Assembly: GCA_038212325.1 (NCBI GenBank)
Contig: JBBQUQ010000004.1
Coordinates: 154-64,153 of the forward strand
Origin: Bacteroidales bacterium
Lineage (GTDB): Bacteria > Bacteroidota > Bacteroidia > Bacteroidales > FEN-979
DNA length: 64,000 nt
Direction: 5' to 3'
Notes under the pieces: generated by a model
Told to the model about the DNA's origin: nothing
What the model saw: the letters and a program-made list of their open reading frames with translations, nothing else
Database searches by the model: none
Shown here: positions 4,272-45,262 of the stretch, piece after piece
Layout: every line of letters begins with the position of its first letter
Numbering within the stretch: the first letter of the stretch is position 1
Made by a program: the position numbers and the translations under genes

Positions 4272-6851
4272 ATGGCACTCATAAAAAAAGACAACTCCTT
4301 ATCAGTTTTCGGATTTCCTGCTTTCTGGATGGCCCTTATTGCCATCGCCACCTTTGTGGCCTACCTTCCGGCTTTAAGGGGGAATTTCACGAGTTGGGAC
4401 GACATGGTCTATGTTGTTGAAAATCCATACATCAAGTCCCTTTCGGCAAAAAACATCGCCGAAATCTTCTCCACCAATTTCATGGGGAATTATCACCCCC
4501 TGTCGATGTTGTCGCTTTCAATTGATTACCAGATAAATAAATTTGACCCATTTGTCTTTCACCTCAACAATATCCTTATACACATTGTAAATTCCATTCT
4601 GGTGCTGCTGGTAATTAAACAGCTTACCGGGAAGTTGCAGGTCGCTGTAATTGCTGCGTTGCTATTTGGCGTGCATGCACTACACGTGGAGTCGGTGGCC
4701 TGGATTTCGGAAAGGAAAGATGTGCTGTACACCTGTTTTTACCTGTTATCGATATATAGCTATCTGCGTTATTTTCCGAAAAAAGACTACAAGTGGTTTG
4801 GCTTAAGCCTCCTTTTCTTTCTGCTTTCATGTTTGTCGAAGGGACAGGCTGTGACCCTTGCTGTCACACTTTTCCTGGTTGATATTTTCGCCGGCAGGAA
4901 GTGGACTGAGATTAAAATTCTGTTGGAAAAGGTCCCTTTTCTCATCCTGGCCCTGATATTTGGCATAGTTGCATTCGGGGCACAGCAGGGGGCTGATGCG
5001 ACCATCATGGCTAACTTCCCTGTTCAGCAGCGTGTTGCTTTTGCGTCATATGGCTTAATCATGTATATCCTGAAACTGATATACCCTTTCGCACTGTCGG
5101 TGTACTATCCTTACCCGATACTTGGAAATACAGGCGAAGTTCCCTTGTTATTCTGGCTCTGCATCATTCCGGCCATTGCTTTTATCGTTCTTGTGTTCCT
5201 GGCGTGGAAGCGTTCAAAACCGTTATTTTTCGGGACAGCTTTCTTTCTTTTAAATATAGTCTTGCTGCTGCAACTGTTACCAGTGGGGCGGGCTATTATG
5301 GCCGACCGGTATGCTTACATCCCTTCCATCGGCTACTGTTTTCTTGTCGGGGTTTACATCTCCGACCGGAGGTATATCAAGTTGGATAAGGTTGCCTGGG
5401 GAATTGTATCACTTTATGCTGCCTTGCTTATGTTCCTTACATTCCAGCAAAGCAAGATATGGCTTAACTCCCAAACGTTATGGAGTGACGCCATCGCAAA
5501 AAACCGCAATGTTCCGGTTGCCTGGTACAACCTGGGAAATACCCATATGGATTCTGCCAATTATAAAGCGGCGATATCCGAATACACTGAATGCCTCAAA
5601 CTTCAGCCCGATTTTTGGAAAGCATATATAAACCGGGGGAATGCCAAAAGCAAAACAAACGATTTTATCGGGGCGATCGCTGATTTTGATGCCATGCTCA
5701 GGATTGATTCAACCTCGGCAACTGCTTATATCAACCGTGCCCTTGCACGCAGGATGCTTCAGGATTACCCTAATGCGCTAAAGGATTATAATATTGCGGT
5801 GCGATTGAAGCCTGATCAGATGGAACTCTTCGCTGCCCGGGCAAACCTGAAGCTTGACATGAAAGATTATGAAGGTGCCATCCGTGATTTTGACGAGGCG
5901 ATTAAAATAAATCCGAAGGCCCCTGCAGTTTACACCAACCGGGCAATCGTCAAGAAAGCCGGGAATGATCTGTCCGGAGCACTTGCAGATTATAACACAG
6001 CCATTGAGCTTGACCCCAACAACAGCGAGTTTTACAATAACAGGGGCAACCTGAAATTTCAATTGAACGATTTCAAGGGAGCCATTGATGATTATTCGGC
6101 AAGTATCCGCCTGTCGCCAAAGGATTACCTTGGATATAAGAACCGGGCAGCCGTCAGATTATCCCTGAAACAATATGATGAGGCCCTGGCCGATCTTAAG
6201 GCTGGCATCAGGCTGAACGCGAAATCGGGCGAACTATTTTACACGATGGCCATGGTGAAAAAGGCGATGAATGATCTGCCCGGGGCCAAAGCCGATTACA
6301 AGACAGCGGTAGCGTTGGATCCGGGCTATTCTTCGGCGGGCTACATGAAGAGCATCGGCATTTCAAGCAATGAAATGCCAGGGCTTCAGCCTTCCCAGTT
6401 AAACGAGCAGGGGCTGGTGATGGAATCACAAGGCAAGCTGCAGGAGGCTGCTGATTTTTACAAAAAAGCGCTGACGCTTAAGCCGGATTTTGCAGAAGCC
6501 TGGTTTAACCTTGGAAACGTGTATGGCAAGACAAATCGTTTCAGCGAAGCCATGAATTGCCTGAACAATGCCATCAAACATAAGCGTGATTATGTGCAGG
6601 CGCTGTCAAGCCGGGGTATCGCGTTTGCCAGCATGGGGAAAACCGCCGAGGCGATCAGCGACCTTTCGGCGGCAATCAAGGAGAACCCCGAATACGCCGT
6701 TGCTTACTTTAACCGCGCTCTGGTGTATCTCAATACCGGCAAAAAGGATCTTGCCTGCGTTGACCTGCAAAAGGCTGTCAAACTGGGATATAATGCAGCG
6801 TACCCGATCTTTCAGAAGGAGTGCCAGGGCAAACAGGCCATGAAATTGTGA
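4272..6851 (+). CDS. PMT/TMTC-like GT-C membrane glycosyltransferase fused to a long C-terminal TPR array (paralog 2)
   Basis: The first ATG is at 4272; the ORF-track start at 4179 is TTG and overlaps the divergent gene. WDD follows TM1 (NFTSWDDMVYVVENPYI). A multi-TM core is followed by ~12 TPR units (AWYNLGNTH..., AYINRGNAK..., AYFNRALVY...). Confidence 0.8.
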   Translation: MALIKKDNSLSVFGFPAFWMALIAIATFVAYLPALRGNFTSWDDMVYVVENPYIKSLSAKNIAEIFSTNFMGNYHPLSMLSLSIDYQINKFDPFVFHLNNILIHIVNSILVLLVIKQLTGKLQVAVIAALLFGVHALHVESVAWISERKDVLYTCFYLLSIYSYLRYFPKKDYKWFGLSLLFFLLSCLSKGQAVTLAVTLFLVDIFAGRKWTEIKILLEKVPFLILALIFGIVAFGAQQGADATIMANFPVQQRVAFASYGLIMYILKLIYPFALSVYYPYPILGNTGEVPLLFWLCIIPAIAFIVLVFLAWKRSKPLFFGTAFFLLNIVLLLQLLPVGRAIMADRYAYIPSIGYCFLVGVYISDRRYIKLDKVAWGIVSLYAALLMFLTFQQSKIWLNSQTLWSDAIAKNRNVPVAWYNLGNTHMDSANYKAAISEYTECLKLQPDFWKAYINRGNAKSKTNDFIGAIADFDAMLRIDSTSATAYINRALARRMLQDYPNALKDYNIAVRLKPDQMELFAARANLKLDMKDYEGAIRDFDEAIKINPKAPAVYTNRAIVKKAGNDLSGALADYNTAIELDPNNSEFYNNRGNLKFQLNDFKGAIDDYSASIRLSPKDYLGYKNRAAVRLSLKQYDEALADLKAGIRLNAKSGELFYTMAMVKKAMNDLPGAKADYKTAVALDPGYSSAGYMKSIGISSNEMPGLQPSQLNEQGLVMESQGKLQEAADFYKKALTLKPDFAEAWFNLGNVYGKTNRFSEAMNCLNNAIKHKRDYVQALSSRGIAFASMGKTAEAISDLSAAIKENPEYAVAYFNRALVYLNTGKKDLACVDLQKAVKLGYNAAYPIFQKECQGKQAMKL

Positions 6852-6881
6852 AATGGTGAATAGCGAAATGGCGAAATCAAG
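6843..6881. repeat. Tandem 8-nt word array (AAATGGTG family), 5 degenerate units
   Basis: aaattgtg aaatggtg aatagcg aaatggcg aaatcaag. The array spans the stop codon at 6849-6851 and the ATG at 6853. Confidence 0.85.
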
Positions 6882-9354: not shown

Positions 9355-9395
9355 TTTTAAGCACGAAATAACTTATCCATTTAAAAGAAGATTTT

Positions 9396-10403: not shown

Positions 10404-10413
10404 TTATTCATTT

Positions 10414-10905: not shown

Positions 10906-10929
10906 TTATAACGCTAACAACTTAACTTT

Positions 10930-12033: not shown

Positions 12034-12036
12034 GGC

Positions 12037-12693: not shown

Positions 12694-12702
12694 AGAGAAG
12701 CG

Positions 12703-13881: not shown

Positions 13882-13887
13882 CAATTA

Positions 13888-17300: not shown

Positions 17301-17335
17301 TTACGAATTACGGATTACAAATTACGGGTTAACTC
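17301..17335. repeat. Tandem heptamer array, TTACRRR x5
   Basis: ttacgaa ttacgga ttacaaa ttacggg ttaactc. The array fills the 19-nt spacer between 17295 and 17315 and runs into the 3' end of the upstream CDS. Confidence 0.8.
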
Positions 17336-20300
17336 TTCTTCAAAGCGCATGGTTACTGCATCGCATCCATGGTAATAATGACGTTTGTTATTGTCTTCTT
17401 TGGTCGGACGCATGAGCAGTTTGCCATGCTCTTTTTTAGCAGGCAGCAGGGCGATGATTTCCACGAAAATATCGCAGGGTCTATCAGGGGTAATGATTCC
17501 CAGTTCCTTGAGAATTCCTGCGATTTGTTCCAAAGATGACCTCTGGGGGCGGGGATTCATGACTTTTTCGAATTCCTGGATAACTTTCTGCGCATTTGTG
17601 AAGGTCCCTCCTGTTTCCCATGGGAATGAAGCCGGCAGCAACAGATCGGCAGCTTTGGCTGTGTCCGTTAAAAAGTAATCCTGCACCACCTTGAAGGAAG
17701 CACAGGCCAATATTTTTTCGATGGCCTTGCGGTCAATGGCGCAACCCACCGGATCCTCCCCGAAAATAAACAGGTTGCTGACCACCCCTTCGTTGAGCAT
17801 CCCATGCAGGCAGTCGGTTTCTGCCGTGGCCAATTCAGCCACTCCCCATTTTTCCTTCAGGGCCTTCATATAATCCTGGTCGGCAAGTTCCTGCCCTCCA
17901 ATGCCCAGATGCGGGCTTACGCCCATGTCGAACAGCCCCTGCGAATTATTCTTCTCCTTCAAGGCAATCAGTCCATTGGCTGTTTTACCCAACTTGCCTG
18001 TGATCCGGGCAAGGTTGAACAGCTCCTTTGAGGTATTCCCTGATACTTCCTTCTCAGAGAAGATGAGGATGGCATTCATTTCATTGTTATAGGCTTCGGC
18101 GAAGGCTGCAATTTCATCAGATGATATCCCTGTCGATTTGACCAGCGTGTTGAAATCCTCTTTCAGAAGCATGGCTTTATACCCTTCAAAACCCTCAACC
18201 CGGTCGCGCAGGAAGAGCGCATTCTCCAGTCCTTTCGAGAGCAGGTAATGGTTTACAGCCTTGACAAAATGGTAGTAGGATTTCACGACGGTTTGACGGC
18301 TCACCTTGTGCGCCATAGAGTTGACGGCCTTTTCAGTTACCATGATGACCGGCGTTTTATTGAGGTAATGAGCATTCTGAACCATAAATCCGACTACCGC
18401 ATGATCCTTATTCAATTCAGTTCCGAGAAGATAAATCGCACTTGCATCGCCAATTTCAGCAAAAGGGGCATTGAGTTCGCAATTAGTGCGGTACCCCTCT
18501 CCCCTTCCAAGGTAATGGAAACTGCCGACATTGTTGGTCTTTGCGCCGGCACGCGCCAGTTTATGAACCAGGTAGAGTTCTTCATTCGACAGCCTTGCGC
18601 CCCCAAAGAAGGCATTTTCACCCGGGCCGACCGACCTGATTTTTTCGCTGATAAGCATATAAGCCTTCTCAAAGGAAATCTCTTCAAACTTCCCGCCGAC
18701 CTTCAGCATCGGTTTTGTGATGCGGCTGATATCATTGAGGTACCCGTATCCAAATTTCGGGTATTTGCAGATATTTCCATCGCGGTTGATGAGCCCGTTT
18801 TTACCGGTCACTCCCAGCACAAAACCATTTTTGTGGTGCAGGTCAATGGTACATCCCACCGAGCAGTAGTTGCAAATGGAATCAACGGCATGGGACTGCA
18901 CCGGGCCCGGCTTGAACAATACATTCTCGGTGATGGCGCCCGTGGGGCAAGTTGAGATGCACATTCCGCACGATTCGCAATTCGTATCCTGTAGCGCTTC
19001 GCCCATGCCGGGAGACACGTATGTGTGAAACCCGCGATTGATCAGCCCGAGCGCATTGGCTCCGACCACTTCGCGGCAAATGCGCACGCAACGCGCGCAC
19101 AGGATGCACTTATTGTTGTCGATCTCAATATATGGATGGCGAAAATCGACCTGGTATTCCCGAAATTCACCCTCGAAGGATGTTTGCCGGGCATTGTAAT
19201 CACTTGAATATTTCTGCAGATCGCAATCGAAGAAAGCAACACATCCGCATTCCAAACAACGTTGGGCTTCATGGTGAGCAACTTCAGCGCCTTCATAGCC
19301 CAATTCAACCTCGTTGAAATTAAACCGGTCACCTGCAGGCAGGGTAGGCATTTCCTCGCGAACCTGTGTCTCAAATCCTCCGAGGTAGGACTCCTTCTCC
19401 TGCTTTTTGAAATTGTCGCGCCTGCTTGTAAAGGGTTTTTTGAGCGGCTGAACGGGCAACCCCGACAAAAACTGGTGTGCGCTGGTGGAAGCAATTCTTG
19501 CCTGCGCAATGGCTTCGATAATGGTGGCGGGGCCAGTAACCCCGTCGCCGGCGGCAAACATCGAAGGAATCCCTGTTTGCAGGGTTGCCTTATCGGCATC
19601 GATATCTCCCCATTTATTGATCTTCAACTCACCATTTACAGCGTTGGCATTGATGTCGTCGATGAAATCAACGTCGGTTTTCTGGCCGATGGCTGCCAGG
19701 ATGTAGTCGACTTCCAGTTCGAAATCGGAACCCTCCACCGGAACAGGGCGGCGGCGTCCGGATGCATCGGGCTCACCAAGTTCCATTTTAATGCAGGTGA
19801 CAGATGCGACCTCCCCGCTGGCATTTTTGTTAATCTTTTTAGGCAGGGTGAGAAACAGGTATTCCACCCCTTCGAGCTTCGATTCATGGATCTCTATCGG
19901 GTTTGCCGGCATCTCTTTTTCGGTGCGGCGGTAGATTACATAAACTTTGTCGGCTTTGCAGCGGATTGAAGTGCGGCAGCAGTCCATGGCAGTGTTTCCG
20001 CCACCGACCACTGCGATGGTTTTACCCCGGAAATCATACCGCTGACCGGTTATCTCCATGTTTTTCAGGAAATCGATCCCTGAGAAAACATTGCCGGCTT
20101 CGTCGCCTTCACAGCCGACTCCTGTCCCTTTTTGCGAACCAATGGTGAGAACGGTTGCATCATACCTGGATACGAGATCCTTGTAGCTGATATTTTCGCC
20201 CAGCCGCTTGTTATAAAAAATATTGACGCCCAGATCGGTAATATTCTTCACCTCCTGGTCGAGGATATCATTGGGGAGGCGATATTCGGGTATGCCATAT

Positions 20301-21010
20301 CGCAGCCAGCCGCCCGATTTAGGCGCTGCTTCAAAAATATCAACCTGGTGTCCCTCTATCTGCATGAAATGGCCCACCGACAAACCTCCGGGTCCTGCCC
20401 CGATCACGGCAACCTTTTTACCGGTTGACGGCTTCACGTCCGGAATATATTTATCCGGTGAGGCAAGGTCGTAGTCGGAGGCGAAGCGCTTCAGGTAATC
20501 AATGCCCACTGGGGAGCCTTCGTCGAGCAGATTGCGCCGGCATTCTGATTCACAAGGTCTCACGCAAACGCGGCCGCAGATGGCTGGCAAGGGGTTTGTA
20601 TCCTTGATCAGGGCAACCGCTTCGCTATACTGCCCCTTGTCGATCAGAGAAATATATCCCTGTACATCAACACCTGCGGGGCATGTTTGCCTGCAAGGGC
20701 CGATGCAGTCGGCGTAATGGTTGCTCAGCATCAGTTCCAGCGCTATCTTCCGCGATTTATGTATCTCTTCATTGTCGGTTATGATCTTCATTCCCTCCGT
20801 TAGCCTTGTGGAACAGGAGGGCTGGTGGCCGCGCATACCTTCCACCTCTACCACGCAAACATAGCAGGAGGTAAATGGTTCGAGGCGGTCGTCGTTGCAT
20901 AAGGTTGGGATTTTAACCCCATGGCGGGTTGCCAGGGTCAGAATTGTTTCGCCGGGAAAGCCTTTAACAATGTTGCCGTTGAGTATGATGTTTAATGAAT
21001 TGTCAGCCAT
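17315..21010 (-). CDS. Fusion subunit: [2Fe-2S] ferredoxin, GltD/NfnB-type NADPH-FAD module, NuoG-type [4Fe-4S] clusters, and a degenerate molybdopterin-oxidoreductase-like domain (BfuA/StnC-like)
   Basis: The start MADNSLNIILNG is at 21010; upstream codons of the track ORF are repeat-encoded. The NuoG-like N-terminus contains LCNDDRLEPFTSCYVCVVEV. GltD motifs are CRQTCPAG, KKVAVIGAGPGGLS and IAVVGGGNTAMDC. CILCARCVRIC and CESCGMCISTCP are [4Fe-4S] motifs. CNYCSVGCTIDLHH is the Mo-enzyme-type Fe4S4 motif. Confidence 0.8.
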   Translation of the reverse strand: MADNSLNIILNGNIVKGFPGETILTLATRHGVKIPTLCNDDRLEPFTSCYVCVVEVEGMRGHQPSCSTRLTEGMKIITDNEEIHKSRKIALELMLSNHYADCIGPCRQTCPAGVDVQGYISLIDKGQYSEAVALIKDTNPLPAICGRVCVRPCESECRRNLLDEGSPVGIDYLKRFASDYDLASPDKYIPDVKPSTGKKVAVIGAGPGGLSVGHFMQIEGHQVDIFEAAPKSGGWLRYGIPEYRLPNDILDQEVKNITDLGVNIFYNKRLGENISYKDLVSRYDATVLTIGSQKGTGVGCEGDEAGNVFSGIDFLKNMEITGQRYDFRGKTIAVVGGGNTAMDCCRTSIRCKADKVYVIYRRTEKEMPANPIEIHESKLEGVEYLFLTLPKKINKNASGEVASVTCIKMELGEPDASGRRRPVPVEGSDFELEVDYILAAIGQKTDVDFIDDINANAVNGELKINKWGDIDADKATLQTGIPSMFAAGDGVTGPATIIEAIAQARIASTSAHQFLSGLPVQPLKKPFTSRRDNFKKQEKESYLGGFETQVREEMPTLPAGDRFNFNEVELGYEGAEVAHHEAQRCLECGCVAFFDCDLQKYSSDYNARQTSFEGEFREYQVDFRHPYIEIDNNKCILCARCVRICREVVGANALGLINRGFHTYVSPGMGEALQDTNCESCGMCISTCPTGAITENVLFKPGPVQSHAVDSICNYCSVGCTIDLHHKNGFVLGVTGKNGLINRDGNICKYPKFGYGYLNDISRITKPMLKVGGKFEEISFEKAYMLISEKIRSVGPGENAFFGGARLSNEELYLVHKLARAGAKTNNVGSFHYLGRGEGYRTNCELNAPFAEIGDASAIYLLGTELNKDHAVVGFMVQNAHYLNKTPVIMVTEKAVNSMAHKVSRQTVVKSYYHFVKAVNHYLLSKGLENALFLRDRVEGFEGYKAMLLKEDFNTLVKSTGISSDEIAAFAEAYNNEMNAILIFSEKEVSGNTSKELFNLARITGKLGKTANGLIALKEKNNSQGLFDMGVSPHLGIGGQELADQDYMKALKEKWGVAELATAETDCLHGMLNEGVVSNLFIFGEDPVGCAIDRKAIEKILACASFKVVQDYFLTDTAKAADLLLPASFPWETGGTFTNAQKVIQEFEKVMNPRPQRSSLEQIAGILKELGIITPDRPCDIFVEIIALLPAKKEHGKLLMRPTKEDNNKRHYYHGCDAVTMRFEEELTRNL

Positions 21011-21017
21011 TTGATAG

Positions 21018-21120
21018 AAATTGTGAGATGGTGAAATTGTGAGATGGTGAAATAGTGAAATTGTGAGATGGTGAAATTGTGAGATGGTGAAATAGTGAAA
21101 TGGTGAAATAGTGGTGAAAA
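21018..21120. repeat. Tandem 8-nt word array (AAATGGTG family), 12 units with a 40-nt higher-order repeat x2
   Basis: The block (aaattgtg agatggtg aaattgtg agatggtg aaatagtg) occurs twice, at 21018-21057 and 21058-21097, then aaatggtg aaatagtg gtgaaaa. The array fills the 110-nt intercistronic spacer. Confidence 0.95.
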
Positions 21121-22896
21121 TTAAGATAGAAGTATGGATTCGAATTTGCATTTTGAAAAGCAGACCCCGCATTTGGTGCAGATCTCCTGGTTGATGAAGT
21201 GTGTTTGCTTCCGCTCGCCGGTAATTGCTTTCACAGGGCAGTTCTTAAGGCACACCATGCAACCTGTGCATTTTTCCTCATCCACCTTATAGGTCAGCAG
21301 CGGTCGGCACACTTTGGCCGGGCACTTTTTGTGGTTGATATGGGCTTCATATTCATCCCTGAAATATTTGATGGTGGTGAGAACCGGGTTCGGTGCTGTT
21401 TGTCCCAGCCCGCACAGCGAGTTATCCTTGATCTGGTATGCAAGTTCTTCCAGTTTTTCAAGGTCTCCCTCCCTGCCATGCCCATAGGTAATGCGATCGA
21501 GGATTTCAAGCATGCGCTTGGTCCCCATGCGGCAGAAGGTGCATTTGCCGCAGCTCTCCTTGCAGGTAAAATCGAGGAAGAACTTGGCCACATCGACCAT
21601 GCAGGTGGTTTCGTCCATCACAACCATCCCGCCCGAGCCCATGATGGCGCCGGTGGCATTGACCGAATCATAATCGACGATGGTGTCGGACAGGTACTCG
21701 GGGATACAACCTCCTGAGGGACCGCCCATCTGAACTGCCTTGAACTTTTTGTTGTTTTTGATGCCGCCGCCCAGCTTAAAAATGACATCGCGGATGGTCA
21801 TCCCCATCGGGACCTCGACCAGCCCTGAGTGGCACACTTTGCCGGCCAGTGCAAATACCTTGGTCCCCTTGCTCTTCTCTGTGCCATACTGGGCATATGC
21901 CTCGGCGCCGTTGATGATGATCCAGGGGATGTTGGCAAACGTTTCGACATTGTTGATGTTCGTCGGCTTCTTCCACAGTCCCGAAACGGCTGGGAATGGC
22001 GGGCGTTTGCGCGGCATTCCGCGTTCTCCTTCGATAGAGGCTATGAGTGCTGTTTCTTCTCCGCATACAAAAGCCCCGGCTCCCTCCTTGATGTAGATAT
22101 CGAGGTTAAACCCTTCGATCCCGAATATATTCTTCCCCAGGTATCCTTTCTCATGTGCCTGCTTGATGGCGATGTTCAACCGTTTGATGGCCAGAGGGTA
22201 TTCGGCGCGGCAGTAAATCACCCCGCCGGTAGCTTCGATGGCATAGGCCGCAATGATCATTCCTTCGAGCACCGAATGCGGGTCGCCTTCAAGAACCGAC
22301 CGGTCCATAAATGCACCGGGGTCGCCTTCATCGGCGTTGCAGATCACATATTTATCGGCCGATTTGTTGGCATTCGCAAACTTCCATTTCATGCCGGTCG
22401 GAAACCCTCCGCCACCGCGGCCGCGCAATCCCGATTTGAGAATCGTGTCGATCACCGCTTCGCGGCTGGTTTTTGCTTCAGCTATCATTTTAATGGCTTT
22501 GTAGCCATCCCGGGTTTCATATTCATCAATGGATTCGGGGTCCATATACCCGCAGTTCCGCAGCACGATTTTCACCTGCGCCCCGATAAAATCATTTTCC
22601 GGGGCATCAAACAAATCGGTGCACACGATGTAATCGCGGATGGGGTCCTGCTGGTTGATATGCTTTTCGATGACTTCGACGGCGCGGTCGGCGTCGACTT
22701 CACCATACAAGTAAGTCCCTGTTTCATCGGTGATCTCAACCAGGGGCTCGCGGTAGCACATGCCGACGCAACTGGTTTTCTTGAGTATGAAATCGAGCTT
22801 ATCCGATTCTTTCAGTGCTTTTATCTTATCATAGGTCTTGTTTGCACCCGCTGCGATGCCGCAGCTTCCAAGTCCGACGGTGACGATTGTAGGCAT
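21121..22896 (-). CDS. NuoF-like NADH/FMN subunit with extra N-terminal [2Fe-2S] and C-terminal 2x[4Fe-4S] domains (HydB/BfuB-type)
   Basis: GRGGGGFPTGMKW is the FMN site and ESCGKCTFCR is the N3 cluster. The N-terminus (GSCGIAAG...CVGMCYREP) is thioredoxin-like. The C-terminus has CTGCMVCLKNCP and CTKCGVCFSKC. Confidence 0.9.
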   Translation of the reverse strand: MPTIVTVGLGSCGIAAGANKTYDKIKALKESDKLDFILKKTSCVGMCYREPLVEITDETGTYLYGEVDADRAVEVIEKHINQQDPIRDYIVCTDLFDAPENDFIGAQVKIVLRNCGYMDPESIDEYETRDGYKAIKMIAEAKTSREAVIDTILKSGLRGRGGGGFPTGMKWKFANANKSADKYVICNADEGDPGAFMDRSVLEGDPHSVLEGMIIAAYAIEATGGVIYCRAEYPLAIKRLNIAIKQAHEKGYLGKNIFGIEGFNLDIYIKEGAGAFVCGEETALIASIEGERGMPRKRPPFPAVSGLWKKPTNINNVETFANIPWIIINGAEAYAQYGTEKSKGTKVFALAGKVCHSGLVEVPMGMTIRDVIFKLGGGIKNNKKFKAVQMGGPSGGCIPEYLSDTIVDYDSVNATGAIMGSGGMVVMDETTCMVDVAKFFLDFTCKESCGKCTFCRMGTKRMLEILDRITYGHGREGDLEKLEELAYQIKDNSLCGLGQTAPNPVLTTIKYFRDEYEAHINHKKCPAKVCRPLLTYKVDEEKCTGCMVCLKNCPVKAITGERKQTHFINQEICTKCGVCFSKCKFESILLS

Positions 22897-22903
22897 ATTA
22901 TCT

Positions 22904-22925
22904 GTTTACGAGTTAAGAGTTACGA
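22904..22925. repeat. Short tandem GTTACGA-like word array (3 units)
   Basis: gtttacga gttaaga gttacga, in the 34-nt spacer between the NuoE-like stop and the NuoF-like start. Confidence 0.7.
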
Positions 22926-27350: not shown

Positions 27351-27437
27351 GAGGTATCATCGGATGAAGGGCTCAAAATTAGCACAATCTTTTCATCTTT
27401 TCAAAATCCTTTTTACCTCAAAAATCGGGTGGCAAGA

Positions 27438-30879: not shown

Positions 30880-30909
30880 GGCATGGTGATGCCGGCAGTG
30901 ATGACCGTT

Positions 30910-35425: not shown

Positions 35426-35435
35426 TAAATATTTC

Positions 35436-36386
35436 ATGAGTGAGAAACTAATAAACATCGAATCCGTTCATCCGCTGGATATTTTTGGCCCCAATGACCA
35501 GAACCTGGAAATGGTCCGTAATGCCTTCCCAAAACTTAAGATTATTTCGCGGGATAACTACGTCAAAGCCTACGGAGAAGAGTCGGACCTGCTTGAATTT
35601 GAATTAAAATTCACCTCCCTCCTGCTCCATTTTGAAAAGTTTGGCCGGCTGACAAAGACTGACATCGGCTTGTTGCTGAACCCCGAGTCAAATGGCCAGG
35701 CTGCGGCAACCGAAGGCCAGAATGATGTGCTGGTTCATGGCAAGAACGGCATGCTCATCAGGGCCCGAACAGCCAACCAGCGCAAACTTGTCGACAGCAG
35801 TCTTAAAAACGACCTGGTTTTTGCCATCGGGCCTGCAGGCACCGGCAAAACCTACACTGCGGTTGCCATGGCAGTAAGGGCGCTAAAAAACAAAGAGATA
35901 CAGCGGATCATCCTCACCCGGCCGGCCGTAGAGGCAGGCGAGAACCTGGGTTTTCTGCCGGGCGACCTGAAGGAGAAGCTCGACCCGTACATGCAGCCCC
36001 TGTACGACGCGTTGGGCGACATGCTGCCAACACAAAAACTCCTGCAATATATCGAAGAGCGCGTGATCGAAATAGCCCCGCTGGCCTTCATGCGCGGACG
36101 GACCCTCAACAACGCCTTTGCCATTCTCGACGAAGCCCAGAACACCACCCCAAGCCAGCTCAAGATGTTTCTCACCCGCATGGGCGCTTCTGCAAAATTC
36201 ATCGTAACAGGCGACATCACCCAGATCGATCTGCCTAAAAACCAGGTGAGCGGACTGGTGCACTCTCAAAAAATTCTGAACAATATCCCCGGAATTGACT
36301 TTGTTTACCTCGACCGTTCCGACATCATCCGGCATAAGCTCGTTAGCAGGATCATTGATGCGTATGGGAATGAGGAAGGGAAATAG
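35436..36386 (+). CDS. phoH: PhoH-family ATPase
   Basis: Walker A GPAGTGKTY, Walker B AILDEAQN, and ITGDITQIDLP. Confidence 0.9.
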   Translation: MSEKLINIESVHPLDIFGPNDQNLEMVRNAFPKLKIISRDNYVKAYGEESDLLEFELKFTSLLLHFEKFGRLTKTDIGLLLNPESNGQAAATEGQNDVLVHGKNGMLIRARTANQRKLVDSSLKNDLVFAIGPAGTGKTYTAVAMAVRALKNKEIQRIILTRPAVEAGENLGFLPGDLKEKLDPYMQPLYDALGDMLPTQKLLQYIEERVIEIAPLAFMRGRTLNNAFAILDEAQNTTPSQLKMFLTRMGASAKFIVTGDITQIDLPKNQVSGLVHSQKILNNIPGIDFVYLDRSDIIRHKLVSRIIDAYGNEEGK

Positions 36387-36388
36387 GA

Positions 36389-36420
36389 AAATGGTGAAAT
36401 GGTGAAATGGTGAAATGGTG
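36389..36420. repeat. Tandem 8-nt word array, AAATGGTG x4 (perfect)
   Basis: Four perfect aaatggtg units followed by aaaataaaaaaaat. The array fills the phoH-purC spacer (stop at 36386, ATG at 36435). Confidence 0.95.
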
Positions 36421-36434
36421 AAAATAAAAAAAAT

Positions 36435-37439
36435 ATGACGAATGTACTTCTTAAAAGCAGTTTCAGTTTCCCGGGGCAAAAGAGCCTTTACAAAGGAAAA
36501 GTGCGGGATGTGTACAATATCGGCGATGAGCTGCTGGTGATGGTTGCCAGTGACAGGATATCGGCTTTTGATGTTGTTTTGCCGCGGGGGATTCCCTTCA
36601 AGGGACAGGTGCTGAACCAGATCGCCGCCAGGTTCCTGGAGGCAACGGCCGACATCTGCCCCAATTGGATGATCGCCAGCCCCGATCCCAATGTGACCAT
36701 CGGGCGCTTTTGCACGATCTACCCTGTTGAGATGATCATCCGCGGTTACCTTACCGGGAGTTCATGGCGCACCTATCAAAAAGGCAGCCGCGAAATTTGT
36801 GGTGTGCCGGTGCCCGATGGCATGAAAGAGCACCAGCGGTTCCCCGAACCCATCATCACGCCCACCACCAAAGCGGCCGAGGGCCACGACGAGGATATTA
36901 CGGAGGCTGAACTCCTGGCGCAGGGATTGATCCCGGCAGCGGAATATGACCTCATCAAGCAATACACCCGCGCCCTGTTCAACCGTGGCTCAGAGATGGC
37001 CGCTCAGAAGGGGCTGATTCTTGTTGACACCAAATATGAATTCGGGAAGGGGCCTGATGGAAAAATCTACCTCTGCGATGAGATCCACACGCCTGATTCA
37101 TCCCGATATTTCTACCTCGACGGGTATGAACAGCGCCAGGCCGACGGGGAGCAGCAACGTCAGTTGTCGAAGGAATTCGTACGTGAATGGCTGATGGCCA
37201 ATGGGTTCATGGGCAAAGAGGGGCAGCAAGTGCCGGAGATGAGCGACACCTGGATCATGGAGATATCCGATCGGTATATCGAGCTTTATGAAGGCATCAC
37301 AGGAGAAAAATTCAACCGGTCGCAAACAGATAATATCCTTGCCAGGGTGGAAAAAAACATCCTGAACTGGCTGGAGGCCAGGAAGAGCCTAGCGGATTAC
37401 GATGAATCGTTGAGCAGTTGTTGCAGTTCCGGAGATTAA
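36435..37439 (+). CDS. purC: Phosphoribosylaminoimidazole-succinocarboxamide (SAICAR) synthase
   Basis: Family motifs [19 protein letters not shown] and [11 protein letters not shown]. The last ~17 codons overlap the convergent gene. Confidence 0.9.
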
Positions 37440-40245: not shown

Positions 40246-40257
40246 GATTTTTTTTTA

Positions 40258-40265
40258 CAAAGGTA
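40258..40265 (-). promoter_or_regulatory. -7 box (TACCTTTG) for the phosphorylase operon
   Basis: The reverse complement of caaaggta matches TAnnTTTG, 12 nt upstream of the ATG at 40245. Confidence 0.45.
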
Positions 40266-40331
40266 ACAAATAAGGCAATCCGTCGGGGATGTACCCCTCC
40301 ATAACCAATAACCTTGCAACGCCATTTTAAC

Positions 40332-40339
40332 TAACTTTG
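40332..40339 (+). promoter_or_regulatory. -7 box (TAACTTTG) for cinA
   Basis: Matches TAnnTTTG and ends only 4 nt before the ATG at 40344, which implies a leaderless or near-leaderless mRNA. Confidence 0.45.
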
Positions 40340-40343
40340 CAGG

Positions 40344-41594
40344 ATGAATGCAGAGATTATCAACATCGGCGACGAACTGCTGATCGGCCAGGTTGTCAAC
40401 ACCAATGCTGCCTGGATGGCGGAGCATTTGAATCTTTCGGGAATCAGGGTATTTCAGTTTACCGTGATCAGCGACTTGCGCAGCCACATTTTACAGGCGC
40501 TTGCCGACGCAGAAAAACGGGCAGAAATTATTTTGATCTCAGGCGGCATCGGTCCCACAAAAGACGATATCACCAAGCACACCCTTTGCGAATATTTCAA
40601 CACCCGCCTTGCATTCAATGAGGCGGCTTACCGCGATGTGGAGGCGATGTTTGCCTGCCGCGGCTACCCGGTCACTGAACTCAACCGGCAACAGGCCGAA
40701 CTCCCTGAAAGCTGCACCGGCATCCCCAATAAACTTGGAACAGCCCGGGGCATGTGGTTCGAGAAGGAGCGCCCTGGCGGGGGGAAGACAATTTTCGTAT
40801 CCATGCCGGGCGTGCCGTTTGAGATGAAGGCCATGATGACCGAGCATGTGATCCCGCTGTTGAAAGGAATTTTCAAGACCCCCTTCATTTATCATAAAAC
40901 ACTGCTGACGCAAGGAATCGGAGAATCATTCCTGGCAGCACAAATCGAATCGTGGGAGAATTCATTACCTGCAGGCATCAAGCTGGCATACCTTCCCCAG
41001 CCCGGCATCGTCAGGCTGCGTCTGACGGGCGAGGGGGCAAACGAGGGGATCCTGCGCCGGCAGGTTGATGCGGAAATTTTGAAATTGCAGGCACTGATCC
41101 CCGACTACTTTTTCGGGTATGACAATGAAACCCTTGAGATGATCGTCGGGCGACTCCTGAAAGAGAAACAGGCCACCCTCGCCACCGCCGAAAGCTGCAC
41201 CGGAGGCGCCATCGCACAGATGATCACCTCGGTGCCAGGAAGTTCGGCATATTATAAAGGATCGGTCGTCGCCTATGCCAACTCCATCAAAGAGCATGTT
41301 CTGGGGGTGCGCGCTGAGAGCATCGAAAAATATGGCGCGGTAAGCAAACAGGTAGTCACTGAAATGGCTATTTCGCTGCAGTCGAGATTCGATGCCGACT
41401 ACGCAATCGCCACCTCGGGAATCGCCGGGCCTGATGGCGGATCCCCTGAAAAGCCAGTCGGAACAACATGGATTGCCATTGCCGCGCCGGATGAAGTTTT
41501 CGCGTCGCATTTTCTTTTCGGCGACAGTCGCGACCGAAACATACGCCGCACGGCGTTGCAGGCGTTGAGCATGTTGCGGAGGAAGTTGTTGTAG
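40344..41594 (+). CDS. cinA: CinA-family protein (MoCF-binding domain plus PncC-type NMN deamidase domain)
   Basis: MNAEIINIGDELLIGQVVNTNA is the canonical N-terminus. The C-terminal block TAESCTGGAIAQ...GTTWIA is present. Confidence 0.9.
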   Translation: MNAEIINIGDELLIGQVVNTNAAWMAEHLNLSGIRVFQFTVISDLRSHILQALADAEKRAEIILISGGIGPTKDDITKHTLCEYFNTRLAFNEAAYRDVEAMFACRGYPVTELNRQQAELPESCTGIPNKLGTARGMWFEKERPGGGKTIFVSMPGVPFEMKAMMTEHVIPLLKGIFKTPFIYHKTLLTQGIGESFLAAQIESWENSLPAGIKLAYLPQPGIVRLRLTGEGANEGILRRQVDAEILKLQALIPDYFFGYDNETLEMIVGRLLKEKQATLATAESCTGGAIAQMITSVPGSSAYYKGSVVAYANSIKEHVLGVRAESIEKYGAVSKQVVTEMAISLQSRFDADYAIATSGIAGPDGGSPEKPVGTTWIAIAAPDEVFASHFLFGDSRDRNIRRTALQALSMLRRKLL

Positions 41595-41596
41595 GG

Positions 41597-41650
41597 TCAC
41601 GCGTCGCAGGCGCGCGCCAATCCGATCACGCGTCGCAGACACGCGCCCAT
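41597..41650. repeat. GC-rich ~29-nt repeat, about 2 tandem copies
   Basis: tcacgcgtcgcaggcgcgcgccaatccga followed by tcacgcgtcgcagacacgcgcccat. The repeat begins 3 nt after the cinA stop codon. Confidence 0.9.
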
Positions 41651-41673
41651 TAAAATTGTTTTTCAGAAGATTC

Positions 41674-41704
41674 TTTGTGATTTAAAATAAAAGGTCTATC
41701 TTTG
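41674..41704 (+). promoter_or_regulatory. Bacteroidota promoter of rpmB (-33 TTTG, 19-nt spacer, -7 TATCTTTG)
   Basis: TTTG at 41674-41677 and TATCTTTG at 41697-41704. The ATG lies 37 nt downstream. Confidence 0.6.
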
Positions 41705-41741
41705 CACTCCATTTTGAAATACCATTCTAATAAGAATAGCC

Positions 41742-41981
41742 ATGGCAAGGATTTGTGAAATTACCGGAAAGATTGCAATCAAAGGGCATAAAGTCTCTCA
41801 TTCCAATAAGAAATCAAAACGTTGGTTCAGTCCGAACATCCAAAGCAAGACATTTTTTGTAGAGGAGGAAAACCGCGAAATAAAATTAAAAGTATCTGCT
41901 GAAGGATTGCGTCACATGAACAAAAAAGGCGTTTATGTGTGCATCAAGGAAGCGCGGGAAAAAGGATACCTGACCAAGTAA
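41742..41981 (+). CDS. rpmB: 50S ribosomal protein L28
   Basis: MARICEITGKIAIKGHKVSHSNKKSKRWFSPNIQ is an unmistakable L28 sequence. Length 79 aa. Confidence 0.95.
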   Translation: MARICEITGKIAIKGHKVSHSNKKSKRWFSPNIQSKTFFVEEENREIKLKVSAEGLRHMNKKGVYVCIKEAREKGYLTK

Positions 41982-42000
41982 GTATTTTTCATGGGTAAAA

Positions 42001-42032
42001 ATGCTGTTACCGATGTAACAGCATTTTTTTTG
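42001..42032 (+). terminator. Rho-independent terminator of rpmB
   Basis: A 10-bp perfect stem (atgctgttac / gtaacagcat), loop cgat, then TTTTTTTT. Confidence 0.85.
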
Positions 42033-42098
42033 CCTTTAACCTAACAAAATAAGCCTGGCGATTTTACGTTATCATATCATATGAACAACTAGCCGAGA

Positions 42099-42758
42099 AT
42101 GAAAAAGAGCCTGTGGTATTTGGTTGCAACACTCATCTTCCTTCTTTCCGGTAATTTATTAAAGGCGCAGGATCTAAACGATGACATCAGCCTGATTCAA
42201 TTCTCGGGCATGACCATCACCGCCGACAGCTTAAATCCGGTACCCTACACAAAAATTCTCGACATCTCCAGCCATCGCGGAACAACGACAGATGTAAGCG
42301 GGTATTTCTCCTTTGTCGCTCATAAAAAGGATACCGTCGTATTCACGGCGGTCGGATTCAAGCCGGCCTCTTTCATCATCCCCGACACCATTACGAAACA
42401 AAGATATTCGCTCATTCAGTTGATGCGGGCCGACACCCTCACGCTGGCGGAGGCCATTATTTTTCCGTGGCCTACCCTCGAAGAATTCAAACGGGCATTC
42501 ATTGAGTTAAAAATCCCGGACGACGACCTTGAGATTGCCCGTAAAAACCTGCTTGCTGCCGACATCCGTATGATGGCCGAAAATTATCCCATGGATGCCT
42601 CCATGAACTATCGGAATTACATCGACAACCAGACAAGCAAGCTATACTATTTCGGGCAGCAGCAGCCCATCAGCATTTTAAACCCTTTTGCATGGGCTAA
42701 ATTCATCAAAGCCTGGAAAGAGGGAAAATTCAGGTCCCAGAAAGAACGGCTGAAATAA
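42099..42758 (+). CDS. Carboxypeptidase-regulatory-like domain protein
   Basis: A signal peptide is followed by FSGMTITADSLNPVPYTKILDISSHRGTTTDVSGYFSFVAHKKDTVVFTAVGFKP, which matches the CarbopepD_reg pattern. Confidence 0.55.
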   Translation: MKKSLWYLVATLIFLLSGNLLKAQDLNDDISLIQFSGMTITADSLNPVPYTKILDISSHRGTTTDVSGYFSFVAHKKDTVVFTAVGFKPASFIIPDTITKQRYSLIQLMRADTLTLAEAIIFPWPTLEEFKRAFIELKIPDDDLEIARKNLLAADIRMMAENYPMDASMNYRNYIDNQTSKLYYFGQQQPISILNPFAWAKFIKAWKEGKFRSQKERLK

Positions 42759-42767
42759 CATCCTGCC

Positions 42768-45191
42768 TTGAAAAAAACTGCATATACCGCCCTATTGTTC
42801 CTGCTCCTGTCCGTTTCATCGGCCTTTGCGCAGCAAGGTGTTATATCGGGCGTGGTGAGAGGCCAGGAAAACCAGCCGCTGCAGTTTGTCAATATCGCCG
42901 TAAAAGGCACTACTGCCGGGGCGACAACAGCAAAGGACGGAAAATTCGAATTGTCAGTTCCTGCGAACCAGGATATTGTGATTTTATTCTCCTATATCGG
43001 GTATGAGTCCGATTCGCTCAAGGTAAGGGTTGCCGAGAATGAGCGGAAGCAGATAGACTACACGCTGATTCAGGCATCCACACAGCTTGAATCCATCGAA
43101 GTCAAAGACCAGCAATTGCGCACAAACACCTTCAGCCGACTCGATCCGAAGGTTCTCACCCTCATCCCCACCATCAATGCCAGCGTAGAAGATTTGATAA
43201 AAACCATGCCGGGGGTCTCCTCCCGCAACGAAATGAGCTCCCAGTATTCAGTGCGCGGCGGCAACTTTGATGAAAACCTGGTGTTCGTGAACGACATCGA
43301 AATCTACCGGCCTTTCCTGGTCAGGTCGGGACAGCAGGAGGGACAGAGCTTCCTGAATCCCGACCTAGTATCAGGCATCTCTTTCTCTTCAGGCGGATTT
43401 GAAGCAAAATACGGCGACAAGATGTCGTCGGTGCTTGACATAAAATATAAAAAGCCATCTGATTTTGCCGCCTCCTGCGATATCAGCCTGCTGGGCGCTT
43501 CGGCCCACGTGGAGGGAATGTTCACCAAAAAGCTCTCCTATCTCCTTGGAACACGCTATAAAAGCACCACCTATCTCCTCCAGGGCCTCGATACCAAAGG
43601 AAATTACAAACCCCTGTTTTTCGACATCCAGGGGATGCTTAACTATGAGATCAGCAAGCAGTGGGAGATCTCTGTGTTGGGAACCTTCACCGACAATACC
43701 TACAAACTGACGCCCGAGTCGCAGGAGACCAACTTCGGCACACTCGACGAAGCGTACCGGATCCAGATGTACTTCGACGGGCGTGAGTCGGATCTTTACC
43801 AGAGCTGGCTTTCGGCCGTAACCCTCACCTACAAGCCGGCGCCGAACATCCGCCTGAAGCTGATCTCTTCAACCTACACGACCTATGAGGCGGAAACGTT
43901 CGATATTTCTGCCGAATACTGGCTCGGAAAGCTGGAAGTCTTCCAGGGCAGCAGCCAGGGCGAGATCACCGAGATCATGGGGGTGGGATCATACCTTCAG
44001 CATGCCCGCAATTACCTCGATGGCAAGGTATATAACGTTGAACACCGAGGCATCTGGGAAATATCAATCAGCAACATGGCCTGGGGGATCTAATACCAGC
44101 ACGAGAATTTCGATTACACCATCAATGAATGGGAACTGCAGGACTCTGCCGGCTACTCTATTCCCCGCCCTCCCGATATCCTCGGATCGCCTGATCCGCC
44201 CCACCAGGATTTTATCATCTATAACCTCCTCAGCAACAAGAATACCGTGACCACAAACCGCCTCTCAGCATTTTTGCAGGACACCTGGACCTTTAAAAAC
44301 CAGAAGAACGACATCGCCCTCACGGCAGGACTGCGCACCATCTATTATGATTTCAATGGTCAGTTCCTGCTGAATCCGAGGGCGAACCTCTCGTTCAAGC
44401 CACACTGGAAGCATGAAACTGTTTTCAGGCTTTCTGCCGGTTCTTATTCCCAGCCGCCGACTTTCCGCGAAATGGCCGATCTCCAGGGAAATATCGTTCC
44501 GGGGCTTAAGGCGCAAACAACCATAGCCGTAGTCGCCGGCAGTGATTACTACTTCAAGGCCTGGGGCCGCCCATTTAAATTTGTTGCGGAGACCTACTAT
44601 AAATATATCAAAGATCTCATCCCTTACGAGATCGACAACATGAAGATCAGGTACTACGGCACAAACGACGCCCATGGCTATGCAGCCGGCATCGATTTCA
44701 GGGTAAACGGCGAATTTGTAAAAGGCGCAGAATCATGGGCAAGCCTGTCGTTCCTTAAAACCGAAGAGTACTTCCAGGGATCCTGGACCCCGCGGCCTAC
44801 CGACCAGCGGGTAAACCTGGCCATTTTCTTCCAGGATTACATTCCCGGCTTCCCGACCTGGAAAATGAATCTTACCCTGGTTTACGGATCGGGGCTGCCC
44901 TTCGGACCGCCCGATTCGCCCCGAAGCAAACAAACCCTGCGTATGCCTCCCTACCGGCGCGTGGATATCGGCCTGTCAAAGCAACTGATCGGGCCGCAGA
45001 CAAATTTTTCGGCGAAAAACCCGCTCCGGGCCTTTGAATCGCTGTGGATATCGCTCGATGTGTTCAACCTGCTGCAGTTCAGCAATACCATCTCCTATCT
45101 CTGGGTTACCGACATCAACGGAACGGAATATGCCGTGCCGAATTACCTGACGCCCAGAACATTCAATCTCAAGTTAAGCGCCAGGTTTTAA
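42768..45191 (+). pseudogene. TonB-dependent receptor (CarbopepD_reg, plug and beta-barrel) interrupted by one in-frame TAA at 44091-44093
   Basis: ORFs 42768-44093 and 44247-45191 are in the same frame, and the 51 codons between them contain no stop. The sequence reads WGI-TAA-YQHENFDYTINEWELQDSAGYSIP. N-terminus GVISGVVRGQENQPLQFVNIAVKG; plug block SVRGGNFDENLVFVNDIEIY; C-terminal LKLSARF. TTG start. Confidence 0.7.
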
Positions 45192-45262
45192 AATGGTGAA
45201 ATGGTGAAATGGTGAAATGATGAAATGGTGAAATGGTGAAATGGCGAAATGGCGAAATGGTG
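45191..45262. repeat. Tandem 8-nt word array, AAATGGTG x9 (variants AAATGATG and AAATGGCG)
   Basis: Nine contiguous 8-mers occupy nearly all of the 76-nt spacer between convergent stop codons (45189-45191 and 45268-45270). Confidence 0.95.

Follow-up and report, generated by a model that had tools for sequence, protein, structure and literature searches.

Tandem 8-nt arrays in intergenic spacers of a Bacteroidales genome: direction relative to neighbouring gene ends and possible causes

Four intergenic spacers in a 64,000-nt stretch of a Bacteroidales genome (GenBank assembly GCA_038212325.1, contig JBBQUQ010000004.1, positions 154 to 64,153; hereafter the window) are occupied by head-to-tail arrays of the 8-nt word AAATGGTG and its variants, with 5, 12, 4.4 and 9 units, and in all four spacers the G-rich strand is the plus strand. 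What gives these arrays a common direction, and what kind of element are they? A first-pass annotation of the window had taken the uniform polarity as a sign of a phenomenon at the DNA level, possibly linked to the replication strand. The analysis reported here, which includes arrays from other genomes, leads to a different answer: the direction of the arrays follows the ends of the neighbouring genes, not the replication strand. This gene-end rule is the most useful outcome of the study, and a translational cause for it is plausible.

Array direction and gene ends

The arrays are situated on the plus strand at 6842..6881 (array 1; about five degenerate units, GAAATTGT GAAATGGT GAATAGC GAAATGGC GAAATCAA; 6841-6877 in Tandem Repeats Finder, TRF, with period 8 and 4.8 copies), at 21017..21120 (array 2; 12-13 units, plus strand without C; TRF 21017-21113, 12.1 copies), at 36389..36423 (array 3; 4.4 perfect units, TRF period 8) and at 45191..45262 (array 4; 9.0 units, TRF period 8). 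TRF (scores 39-123) and reading of the sequence agree with the first-pass annotation on where the arrays lie, and its description of them as filling their spacers holds as well, each array making up about 70-95% of its spacer. Their density is far beyond chance: the word AAATGGTG occurs 13 times in the window (3.7 expected; none of 100 shuffles reached 13), and a 17-mer of two units, with up to three mismatches allowed, occurs 24 times (0.31 expected), always within the four arrays and always on the plus strand. The uniform strand is thus real, but four arrays of four are weak evidence by themselves (two-sided p = 0.125). As tandem repeats with a unit of 5-11 nt that is not a multiple of 3, extended beyond chance and located in spacers in four of four cases, the arrays are long simple sequence repeats (SSRs).

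Other genomes were scanned with three perfect AAATGGTG units, one genome per species, and all counts for relatives come from the matches listed. Concerning polarity, about 130 arrays of the family from more than 40 genomes, mostly of Bacteroidota, were oriented with the G-rich strand first, the arrays were masked, and flanking open reading frames (ORFs) were called symmetrically. In 109 family arrays the G-rich strand, read 5' to 3', leads away from the closest gene, and in 21 the arrangement is the reverse (p = 1.6e-15). The same rule applies to arrays of unrelated words (52 versus 18 of 70 arrays, p = 6e-5) and, at a ratio of 12:1, to purC loci fetched independently from metagenomes. It is seen in co-directional spacers both near the start (30:4) and near the stop (47:12), in convergent spacers (21:3) and in divergent ones (11:2). 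Expressed in the sense of the mRNA, G-sense arrays are stop-proximal in 47 cases versus 4, and C-sense arrays are start-proximal in 30 versus 13; the C-sense arrays before starts contain neither G nor AUG. All four window arrays obey the rule, three following the stops of plus-strand genes and one preceding the start of a minus-strand gene, and this is why all four have their G-rich strand on the plus strand.

In Kiruna_bin-10044, an uncultured Bacteroidales metagenome-assembled genome (MAG), neighbours on a shared contig point the same way in 10 cases and opposite ways in 10. In Hymenobacter isolates, one complete chromosome among them, arrays of opposite orientation lie no more than about 100 nt apart. 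Array polarity showed no association with local GC skew (52:39, p = 0.21; skew of the window 0.0055). On the 10:10 orientation at the level of contigs and the GC-skew test, a link to the replication strand was rejected as the cause of direction, and we regard this part of the earlier interpretation as largely refuted. Where two arrays form a close inverted pair, the G-array precedes the C-array in seven of seven cases (L033, L080, L086, L089, L094, L097, L098), and further pairs with this order exist at L060, L087 and L109.

Distribution and turnover of the arrays

Among the matches listed, AAATGGTG arrays occur at at least 109 loci, about 100 of which are labelled Bacteroidota; nine loci belong to bins labelled as other phyla or unclassified. 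Kiruna_bin-10044 carries at least 50 arrays at at least 37 loci, and two further Bacteroidales MAGs have at least 13 and at least 7 loci. Carriers among the matches listed also include Hymenobacter isolates (one of them with a complete chromosome), Proteiniphilum, Flavobacteriales, Chitinophagaceae, Saprospiraceae and Microscillaceae. The family is widespread in Bacteroidota, yet its word is undescribed in the literature: a full-text search for the array sequence gave no match. The statement of the first-pass annotation that the arrays are not a described element therefore applies to the word but not to the class, which has been described in the form of long SSRs with 5-11-nt units, of TAACTGA repeats and of GGGNATC arrays.

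A TRF analysis of about 780 kb of fetched loci yielded 607 arrays with periods of 5-12, peaking at 7 (173 arrays) and 8 (219 arrays); 123 of the 219 period-8 arrays consist of the AAATGGTG word. Numerous other words recur as arrays in the same genomes, among them AATATTC, ACATCGT, AGGATGC and AATTACG, the last being equal to TTACGAA of the window. Within the AAATGGTG family, 46 arrays have 3 units, 27 have 4 and 10 have 5, the copy number ranging from 3 to more than 17. In relatives, single arrays form the majority, and many arrays are situated at contig ends. Within arrays, the words may grade from AGGTAGCG over AAATAGCG to AAATGGTG, and in Hymenobacter GGTGAGGT is found; unrelated G-poor arrays often come after those of the AAATGGTG family. 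Among viral contigs, three perfect units gave no match, hence no sign of carriage by phages, and two shuffled-word controls gave 1 and 0, the collection being too sparse to serve as a control for word specificity.

Flanking sequence shared across loci, which would be a sign of a mobile element, was not found, with the exception of one 47-nt unit that a few loci in a single MAG have in common. This unit, TTCGGCGAAGCCGTAATGAACACAAATAAAATAGACAATTCGTGAAT, contains a small GC hairpin and adjoins AAATGGTG arrays in Kiruna_bin-10044 (L020, 126-149 and 7861-7884; L077, 356-403; L091, 2550-2589); at L020 it alternates with three-unit arrays, forming a composite repeat of about 70 nt. In Hymenobacter, arrays of GGTGAAAT / GGTGAGGT constitute the arms of palindromic intergenic elements (L080, 3500-3700; L097, 7040-7220; L098, 4480-4790), and the arms at L098 enclose a second inverted repeat (GTCATCCTGAGCGCAGCGAAGGACC...).

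Comparisons of orthologous spacers reveal changes of copy number by whole units between related genomes, as is the signature of slippage. Orthologous arrays have 6 versus 5 units in L058 and L091, and 6 versus 3 in L008 and L038. In the inverted pair conserved between L087 and L094, the G-rich side has 3 versus 4 units, and the C-rich partner is short in L087 and has 13 units in L094. L016 and L072 share the word family with a different order of variants. The array of L039 is absent from the orthologous spacers of L040 and L043, and one spacer holds the same word in L012 and L069 but with orientation and position reversed, both arrays obeying the gene-end rule. Arrays are nevertheless kept at orthologous gene ends even where the DNA identity of the flanking genes is no higher than about 70%; the window array at 45191 and that of L060, for example, both follow the stop of a protein with 76% identity. 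Array 2 shows in TRF a 40-nt super-period, i.e., a higher-order repeat of five units, and this period together with the clustering of variant units would fit stepwise slippage or unequal exchange.

In diverse Bacteroidales, the spacers at purC are occupied by arrays of different words. The best metagenome matches to the phoH-purC spacer are 65-72% identical, which makes them informative on the turnover of words and not on recent history. In unrelated Bacteroidales, arrays of other words with 7-8-nt (and 11-nt) units adjoin purC on its upstream or downstream side, namely in L120 (2959-2999), L124 (2926-3015), L131 (2947-3037), L188 (1774-1981) and L137 (87-159), and several of the arrays at purC loci are head-to-head pairs, purine-rich after the stop and pyrimidine-rich before the next start. 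At L008 (2957-3030), a heptosyltransferase-like gene (MVKQRKKILVIRFSSIGD) appears in fact to begin with the ATG of the last array unit; at L038 (50-110), its ortholog begins 14 nt past the array there.

Possible causes of the arrays and of their direction

The reading that we prefer, at a probability of about one half, is that the arrays are slippage-driven SSRs with 7-8-nt units which are filtered by translation constraints and probably constitute near-neutral spacer filler. Whole units would be gained, lost and homogenised in place by slipped-strand mispairing or unequal exchange. Persistence and orientation would be set by purifying selection on translation, the dependence on gene position being the observed part of this proposal. 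As mRNA, AAAUGGUG contains UGA, AUG and GUG in all three frames, the period being 8; the complement CACCAUUU contains no G, hence no start codon and neither UAG nor UGA, and is free of UAA and of structure. Initiation in Bacteroidetes ignores the Shine-Dalgarno sequence and needs an unstructured, A-rich region, and AUG is depleted there from -21 to -1 (Baez et al. 2019, PMC6847099). The region before a start in Shine-Dalgarno-less Bacteroidota would have to be unstructured, G-poor and without additional AUGs, such that a G-sense array would not be tolerated within about 20 nt upstream of a start and a CACCAUUU array could directly abut the start codon. Right after a stop, a G-sense array would be harmless or even convenient; it may abut or replace the end of the gene at no cost, and the C-rich orientation at that place would cause read-through. 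The resulting order would be stop, G-rich repeats, C-rich repeats or A-rich leader, start, and therefore an apparent polarity of the DNA. Such a filter would reproduce the observed directions including the head-to-head pairs. In function, the arrays would be at most structure-free spacers; the head-to-head pairs in relatives could fold into long hairpins.

Among 29 long ORFs that run into G-sense arrays, 14 stop at the junction by using the first A's of the array, and 13 stop at the first, second or third TGA inside it. Co-directional spacers without arrays are also G-poor in their last 20 nt (11-13% G). Arrays of other words contain an in-sense start codon in 2 of 27 cases next to starts, versus 12 of 43 next to stops. 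Also in favour of the preferred reading are the predominance of periods 7 and 8, the lack of RNA structure in the window arrays, their location beside ordinary housekeeping genes and the like anchoring of GGGNATC arrays.

Several points weigh against slippage with a translation filter as a sufficient account. Next to stops, 17 of 43 arrays of other words contain a stop codon, which is not an enrichment, given our own rough estimate of about 30% for random 7-8-mers; the more general proposition that stop-adjacent arrays are all-frame stop traps is thus unsupported for other words, and because of this the stop side of the filter is less secure than the start side. For the bias at stops in convergent spacers (21:3), the filter offers no more than an indirect explanation, namely that the stop comes from the array. 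Independent births cannot put one 8-mer at 50 or more spacers per genome and into several orders (Bacteroidales, Cytophagales with Hymenobacter, Flavobacteriales and Chitinophagales); the seeding of a single word needs a spreading mechanism or word-specific selection, and the slippage model accounts for neither. The arrays also outlast what is expected of neutral unstable DNA, with flanks about 70% identical, which could mean a function. GGGNATC, a stop-free word of bacteria that use Shine-Dalgarno sequences, is anchored in the same manner, and so a more general cause may exist. Furthermore, the evidence for changes in copy number consists of comparisons between related genomes and not within the population of this organism, and the preference for periods of 7-8 is left unexplained by the model.

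The outlasting of neutral expectation bears on a second, rather improbable reading, according to which the arrays are functional intergenic punctuation at the level of the mRNA, serving as landing pad, stop trap or insulator. The G-free, unstructured (CACCAUUU)n would be a landing pad for ribosomes or S1 that boosts Shine-Dalgarno-independent initiation, the C-free (AAAUGGUG)n after a stop would be an all-frame stop trap and insulator, and overlapping AUG-GUG-AAA-UGG-UGA mini-ORFs may permit termination-reinitiation. This accounts for the same polarity rule as the preferred reading, and it is consistent with the retention of arrays at orthologous gene ends and with the reliance of Bacteroidetes initiation on unstructured A-rich regions without extra AUGs (PMC6847099). 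The window arrays, all four of them single, are essentially without RNA structure: the RNA of array 2 (21005-21130, minus strand, 126 nt) and that of array 3 (71 nt at 36380, plus strand) each fold at -0.7 kcal/mol, and window array folding is no better than that of shuffles. In array 3, the last in-array ATG (36415) opens a 7-codon ORF, ATG GTG AAA ATA AAA AAA ATA TGA, whose TGA overlaps the ATG of purC as ATGA (36415-36438), possibly a coupling upstream ORF or else a 1-in-3 coincidence. The last unit at L008, as mentioned, appears to supply a start codon, and binding of S1, Csp or CsrA has been proposed for TAACTGA repeats upstream of starts (MacGregor 2015, PMC4679880). Against a function in the mRNA stand the differences in presence among close relatives, the different words at the same spacer, the range of copy numbers from 3 to more than 17, the lack of an associated gene class, the missing enrichment of stop codons in other words next to stops and the fact that the purC overlap is expected by chance in one case of three. 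Many of the co-occurring words are not structure-free either; the assumption that all array words are so was rejected, several of them being quasi-palindromic or containing both G and C.

The pairs in relatives suggest a third, unlikely reading in which the arrays are arms of hairpin-forming extragenic elements, similar to REP/BIME elements or to terminators, with head-to-head pairs of G- and C-arrays terminating or stabilising transcripts and single arrays representing half-elements. Inverted pairs in relatives do fold to -51 to -62 kcal/mol (z-scores -7.6 to -12.8), every close inverted pair found consists of a G-array followed by a C-array, and the Hymenobacter arrays flank palindromic cores. 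In the window, a small terminator-like hairpin (TGGTGGGTTTTCACCG) with a T-rich run (45258..45283, plus strand; stem 45258-45273) uses the last unit of array 4 as its 5' arm, but matches the consensus only weakly. The order within pairs, however, is an automatic outcome of the gene-end rule, the arrays of the window are all single and unstructured, those of relatives are mostly single, and some pairs are located between a stop and a co-directional start, where a strong hairpin would hinder translation.

It is very unlikely that the arrays constitute a DNA-level signal tied to the replication strand, in the manner of Chi or KOPS, or that they are bound by a modular protein recognising 8 nt, as the first-pass annotation had speculated. 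The plus-strand location of all four window arrays is in favour of such a signal, and the gene-end rule can also be stated geometrically, since the G-rich strand points away from the gene at a start as well as at a stop. The evenly divided orientation of neighbours on shared contigs, both orientations within about 100 nt in Hymenobacter and the lack of association with GC skew speak against it. Concerning the protein, nothing was found in its favour, and the same genomes carry many unrelated words of 7 and 8 nt.

Hardly more credible is an origin of the arrays as scars of a templated or reiterative DNA process instead of ordinary slippage, be it repeated 7-8 bp target-site duplications left by a transposon that favours one target word, or the addition of repeats to 3' ends at double-strand breaks and subsequent joining. 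The presence of one word in dozens of spacers per genome and the restriction to periods of 7-8 nt are what this idea has to offer, and a G-rich strand directed toward the centre of the spacer, together with head-to-head pairs, corresponds to the geometry of two joined ends with 3' extensions. The same geometry is reproduced by selection alone, one genome contains several unrelated words, viral contigs gave no match, and no gene for a transposase, reverse transcriptase or primase-polymerase was seen among the 28 window proteins scanned. Speculatively, and at very long odds, the arrays might be healed breaks, an undiscovered activity adding G-rich 7-8-nt repeats to the 3' ends of DNA broken within spacers, after which the ends are joined; it could be RNA-templated or reiterative, by analogy with telomerase. 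If true, break healing would explain one word in dozens of spacers, the direction of the G-strand and the head-to-head pairs without selection, and it would also fit the geometry in Xanthomonas and Nostoc. We know of no bacterial enzyme of this kind.

An artefact of assembly or sequencing can practically be dismissed: short-read contigs do break at the arrays, but the ends of two such contigs from the sample SRR19962012 (L110 and L191) carry units resembling the window's, the four arrays lie in the interior of the window, and such arrays are shared by many independent assemblies, among which are isolates and a complete chromosome. These two contigs belong to three independent short-read contigs of that sample (Logan; L110, L191, L193) that encode exactly the flanking proteins of the window and each terminate inside a AAATGGTG array; the start of L110 and the end of L191 were the two contig ends read. 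A search of public assemblies for the exact flanking proteins found SRR19962012 as the sole sample carrying them, and two of the proteins are not on record. The arrays thus represent systematic breakpoints for the short-read assembly of such genomes.

Known repeats, gene context and other repeats of the window

Few features that recur in bacterial genomes are understood as poorly as tandem arrays of 7-8-nt words. To our knowledge, such arrays have been described from cyanobacteria, Xanthomonas, Burkholderia and Beggiatoaceae, with neither a function nor a spreading mechanism established; Mazel et al. reportedly described the STRR heptamers of cyanobacteria in 1990. The arrays studied here are the Bacteroidota counterpart of the heptamer arrays of cyanobacteria, Xanthomonas and Beggiatoaceae. 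New are a widespread family in Bacteroidota with cultivable carriers (Hymenobacter, Proteiniphilum), the extension of an anchoring rule of one G-rich heptamer to a third phylum and to unrelated words, and a testable candidate cause, namely a constraint on translation initiation in organisms without Shine-Dalgarno sequences.

The closest resemblance in anchoring is to the GGGNATC arrays of Xanthomonas and Nostoc, which, in whichever direction the 5' neighbouring ORF points, are located "almost exclusively" nearer to it (Rehm et al. 2015, PMC4692102). These repeats often overlap the stop codon, and their G-rich strand is the coding strand after stops and the non-coding strand before starts (PMC4692102). 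The GGGNATC and GGGGA(C/T)T arrays are likewise tandem repeats of a 7-8-nt unit, have 2 to more than 20 copies, occupy numerous intergenic loci, are over-represented between co-directional ORFs and have no tie to surface or phase-variable genes; their anchoring applies to the AAATGGTG family (109:21) and to other words (52:18) in all classes of spacers. There are differences, too: the AAATGGTG unit has 8 nt, is AT-rich and, having only GG tracts, is unlikely to form a stable G-quadruplex; its word carries stop and start codons, and the host phylum does without Shine-Dalgarno-led initiation. Whereas four units are preferred in the arrays of Rehm et al., whose GGG tracts can form G-quadruplexes, the AAATGGTG counts decrease from 3 to 5 units without a peak at 4.

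The TAACTGA repeats of Beggiatoaceae, cyanobacteria and five Bacteroidetes (MacGregor 2015, PMC4679880) are similar in that one tandem word occupies many intergenic sites with a patchy phylogenetic distribution, suggesting transfer without an evident mechanism. In Bacteroidetes they form long arrays mixed with other heptamers, are absent from orthologous spacers of relatives, and contigs end inside them (PMC4679880), which all resembles the situation described here. They differ from AAATGGTG in word and period; moreover, in BOGUAY they are mostly in forward orientation a few nucleotides upstream of starts, whereas forward AAATGGTG avoids starts (47:4).

The long SSRs with 5-11-nt units surveyed by Mrazek et al. 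(2007) are, as far as their published summary goes, also longer than chance, mostly non-coding and found in free-living bacteria. Heptamers are their most abundant category, and polymerase slippage has been proposed for them (Mrazek et al. 2007, as cited in MacGregor 2015, PMC4679880). According to MacGregor's summary, Bacteroidota are not among the ten genomes of that survey richest in such repeats; the AAATGGTG word and the mode at 8 nt are new relative to these descriptions, which in summarised form contain no polarity rule.

SSRs of phase variation in Haemophilus, Neisseria and Moraxella also consist of short tandem units that slip easily, and some of them lie between a promoter and the start codon; they belong to surface, restriction-modification or virulence genes, whose expression switches with the copy number. 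The AAATGGTG arrays have no link to surface or virulence genes, being situated after stops or at operon junctions of phoH/purC, NuoF/NuoG-like, YfhO and TPR genes. REP, BIME and REPIN elements are, equally, extragenic, present in many copies and often at the 3' ends of genes, and the inverted pairs in relatives fold into long hairpins as they do; however, they are imperfect palindromes of 20-40 nt, as opposed to non-palindromic 8-nt tandem words, which are unstructured in the window. A Pfam scan of 28 window proteins turned up no RAYT-like gene, although no search was aimed at RAYT. Chi and KOPS are also G-rich polar 8-nt words, and the TGGTG core resembles that of Chi of Escherichia coli, which is GCTGGTGG; they are dispersed single copies oriented with replication, whereas the AAATGGTG arrays are tandem, intergenic and not oriented in this way. 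A purely functional analogy to the rut sites of Rho (at least 60-80 nt, C-rich, G-poor, unstructured and untranslated) may be considered, the RNA of array 2 having a fitting composition with no G, about 35% C and no structure; array 2 belongs to an operon that encodes a single enzyme complex, and termination there would do harm.

Concerning the gene context, array 1 lies between a TPR/glycosyltransferase-like gene and a YfhO-like gene, both on the plus strand (ORF and Pfam evidence). It begins within the last codons of the former, whose TGA (6849-6851) is inside unit 1, is G-rich in mRNA sense directly after that gene, and ends 10 nt before the latter, the start of which is ambiguous (in-frame ATGs at 6853, 6868 and 6892). 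Array 2 occupies a 110-nt gap within one minus-strand operon, between the stop of a NuoF-like gene (21121) and the start of a NuoG/GltD-like gene (21010), and is transcribed as a (CACCAUUU)-type RNA, C-rich, G-free and start-proximal. Array 3 begins 2 nt past the stop of phoH (36386) and is followed by an A-rich leader of 11 nt and the ATG of purC (36435). The first base of array 4 is the last base of the TAA of a plus-strand gene (45189-45191); its spacer is convergent, with the stop of a minus-strand TPR gene (45268) 5 nt beyond the array.

The first-pass annotation had noted N-terminal extensions of ORFs through the repeats. At 21172 this is correct, since the C-rich strand, having neither G nor TAA, is open in all frames, and ORF 17315..21172 extends through array 2 for this reason; a perfect array on the plus strand has TGA in all three frames, such that the extension at 6853 is possible only because array 1 is degenerate. 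In practice, the arrays mislead ORF callers, causing false N-terminal extensions and altered C-termini, and they supply real stop codons and possibly start codons.

The neighbours of the window arrays are ordinary housekeeping genes, with no mobile-element genes among the flanking ones, and the window as a whole is ordinary chromosomal DNA of Bacteroidota, encoding a gliding-type ABC transporter, a type IX secretion system (T9SS) sorting domain, polysaccharide biosynthesis, glutamate dehydrogenase and an electron-bifurcating NuoE/F/G-like operon. A Pfam scan covering 28 window proteins, with 18 genes in 37-64 kb not among them, revealed neither a transposase nor a reverse transcriptase; Rfam 15 gave no match at gathering score in the whole window.

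Short-period self-similarity beyond that of shuffles is found in 7 of the 31 window spacers of at least 12 nt (p <= 0.013), the period being 7 or 8 in all seven, and is marginal in two or three more; the earlier figure of about ten spacers with 7-8-nt repeats is therefore generous, with seven of them significant. A heptamer repeat TTACGAA / TTACGGA (17301..17331, plus strand) fills a 19-nt spacer between two minus-strand genes, and its word (AATTACG) recurs as arrays in related MAGs. In a spacer of the minus-strand operon of array 2, a marginal 7-8-nt repeat GTTTACGA GTTAAGA GTTACGA is present (22904..22925, plus strand), and ATCTTTTC is repeated 2.1 times between two minus-strand genes (27387..27403, plus strand). 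The divergent spacer at 59658..59720 contains head-to-head words with a GGTGA core, GGTGACAA GGTGACTG GTAACGA followed by GTCACCA GTCACCTT GTTACATA GTTACCCT, the G-rich half lying toward the left gene and the C-rich half toward the right gene. Two heptamers, TCACCCG TCACCCA (62668..62681), fill a 14-nt convergent spacer and have the GGTGA core on the reverse complement. This core is common to many repeat words of the window (the arrays, 59658-59720, 62668-62681 and 30880-30909). It complements UCACC of the 3' tail of 16S rRNA, and the type IIS enzyme HphI recognises it too, with cleavage at a distance of 8/7 nt; we take both to be coincidences.

At the junction of two minus-strand genes (50022-50070), a 15-nt tandem repeat, ATTCGCATATTCATC, is present in 3.3 copies, its unit being effectively one of 7+8 nt. 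In sense, it is G-rich and C-poor and comes right after the upstream stop (50065); it forms an in-frame run of ATGs (MNMRMMNMRM...), and therefore the called start at 50068 is probably too far upstream. Directly after the stop of the gene 40344-41594, a GC-rich motif about 29 nt long, G[GA]TCACGCGTCGCAG[GA]C[GA]CGCGCC, is present twice (41595-41655), and 3' of this pair an uncalled small ORF (about 41740-41985) resembles ribosomal protein L28 (MARICEITGK...).

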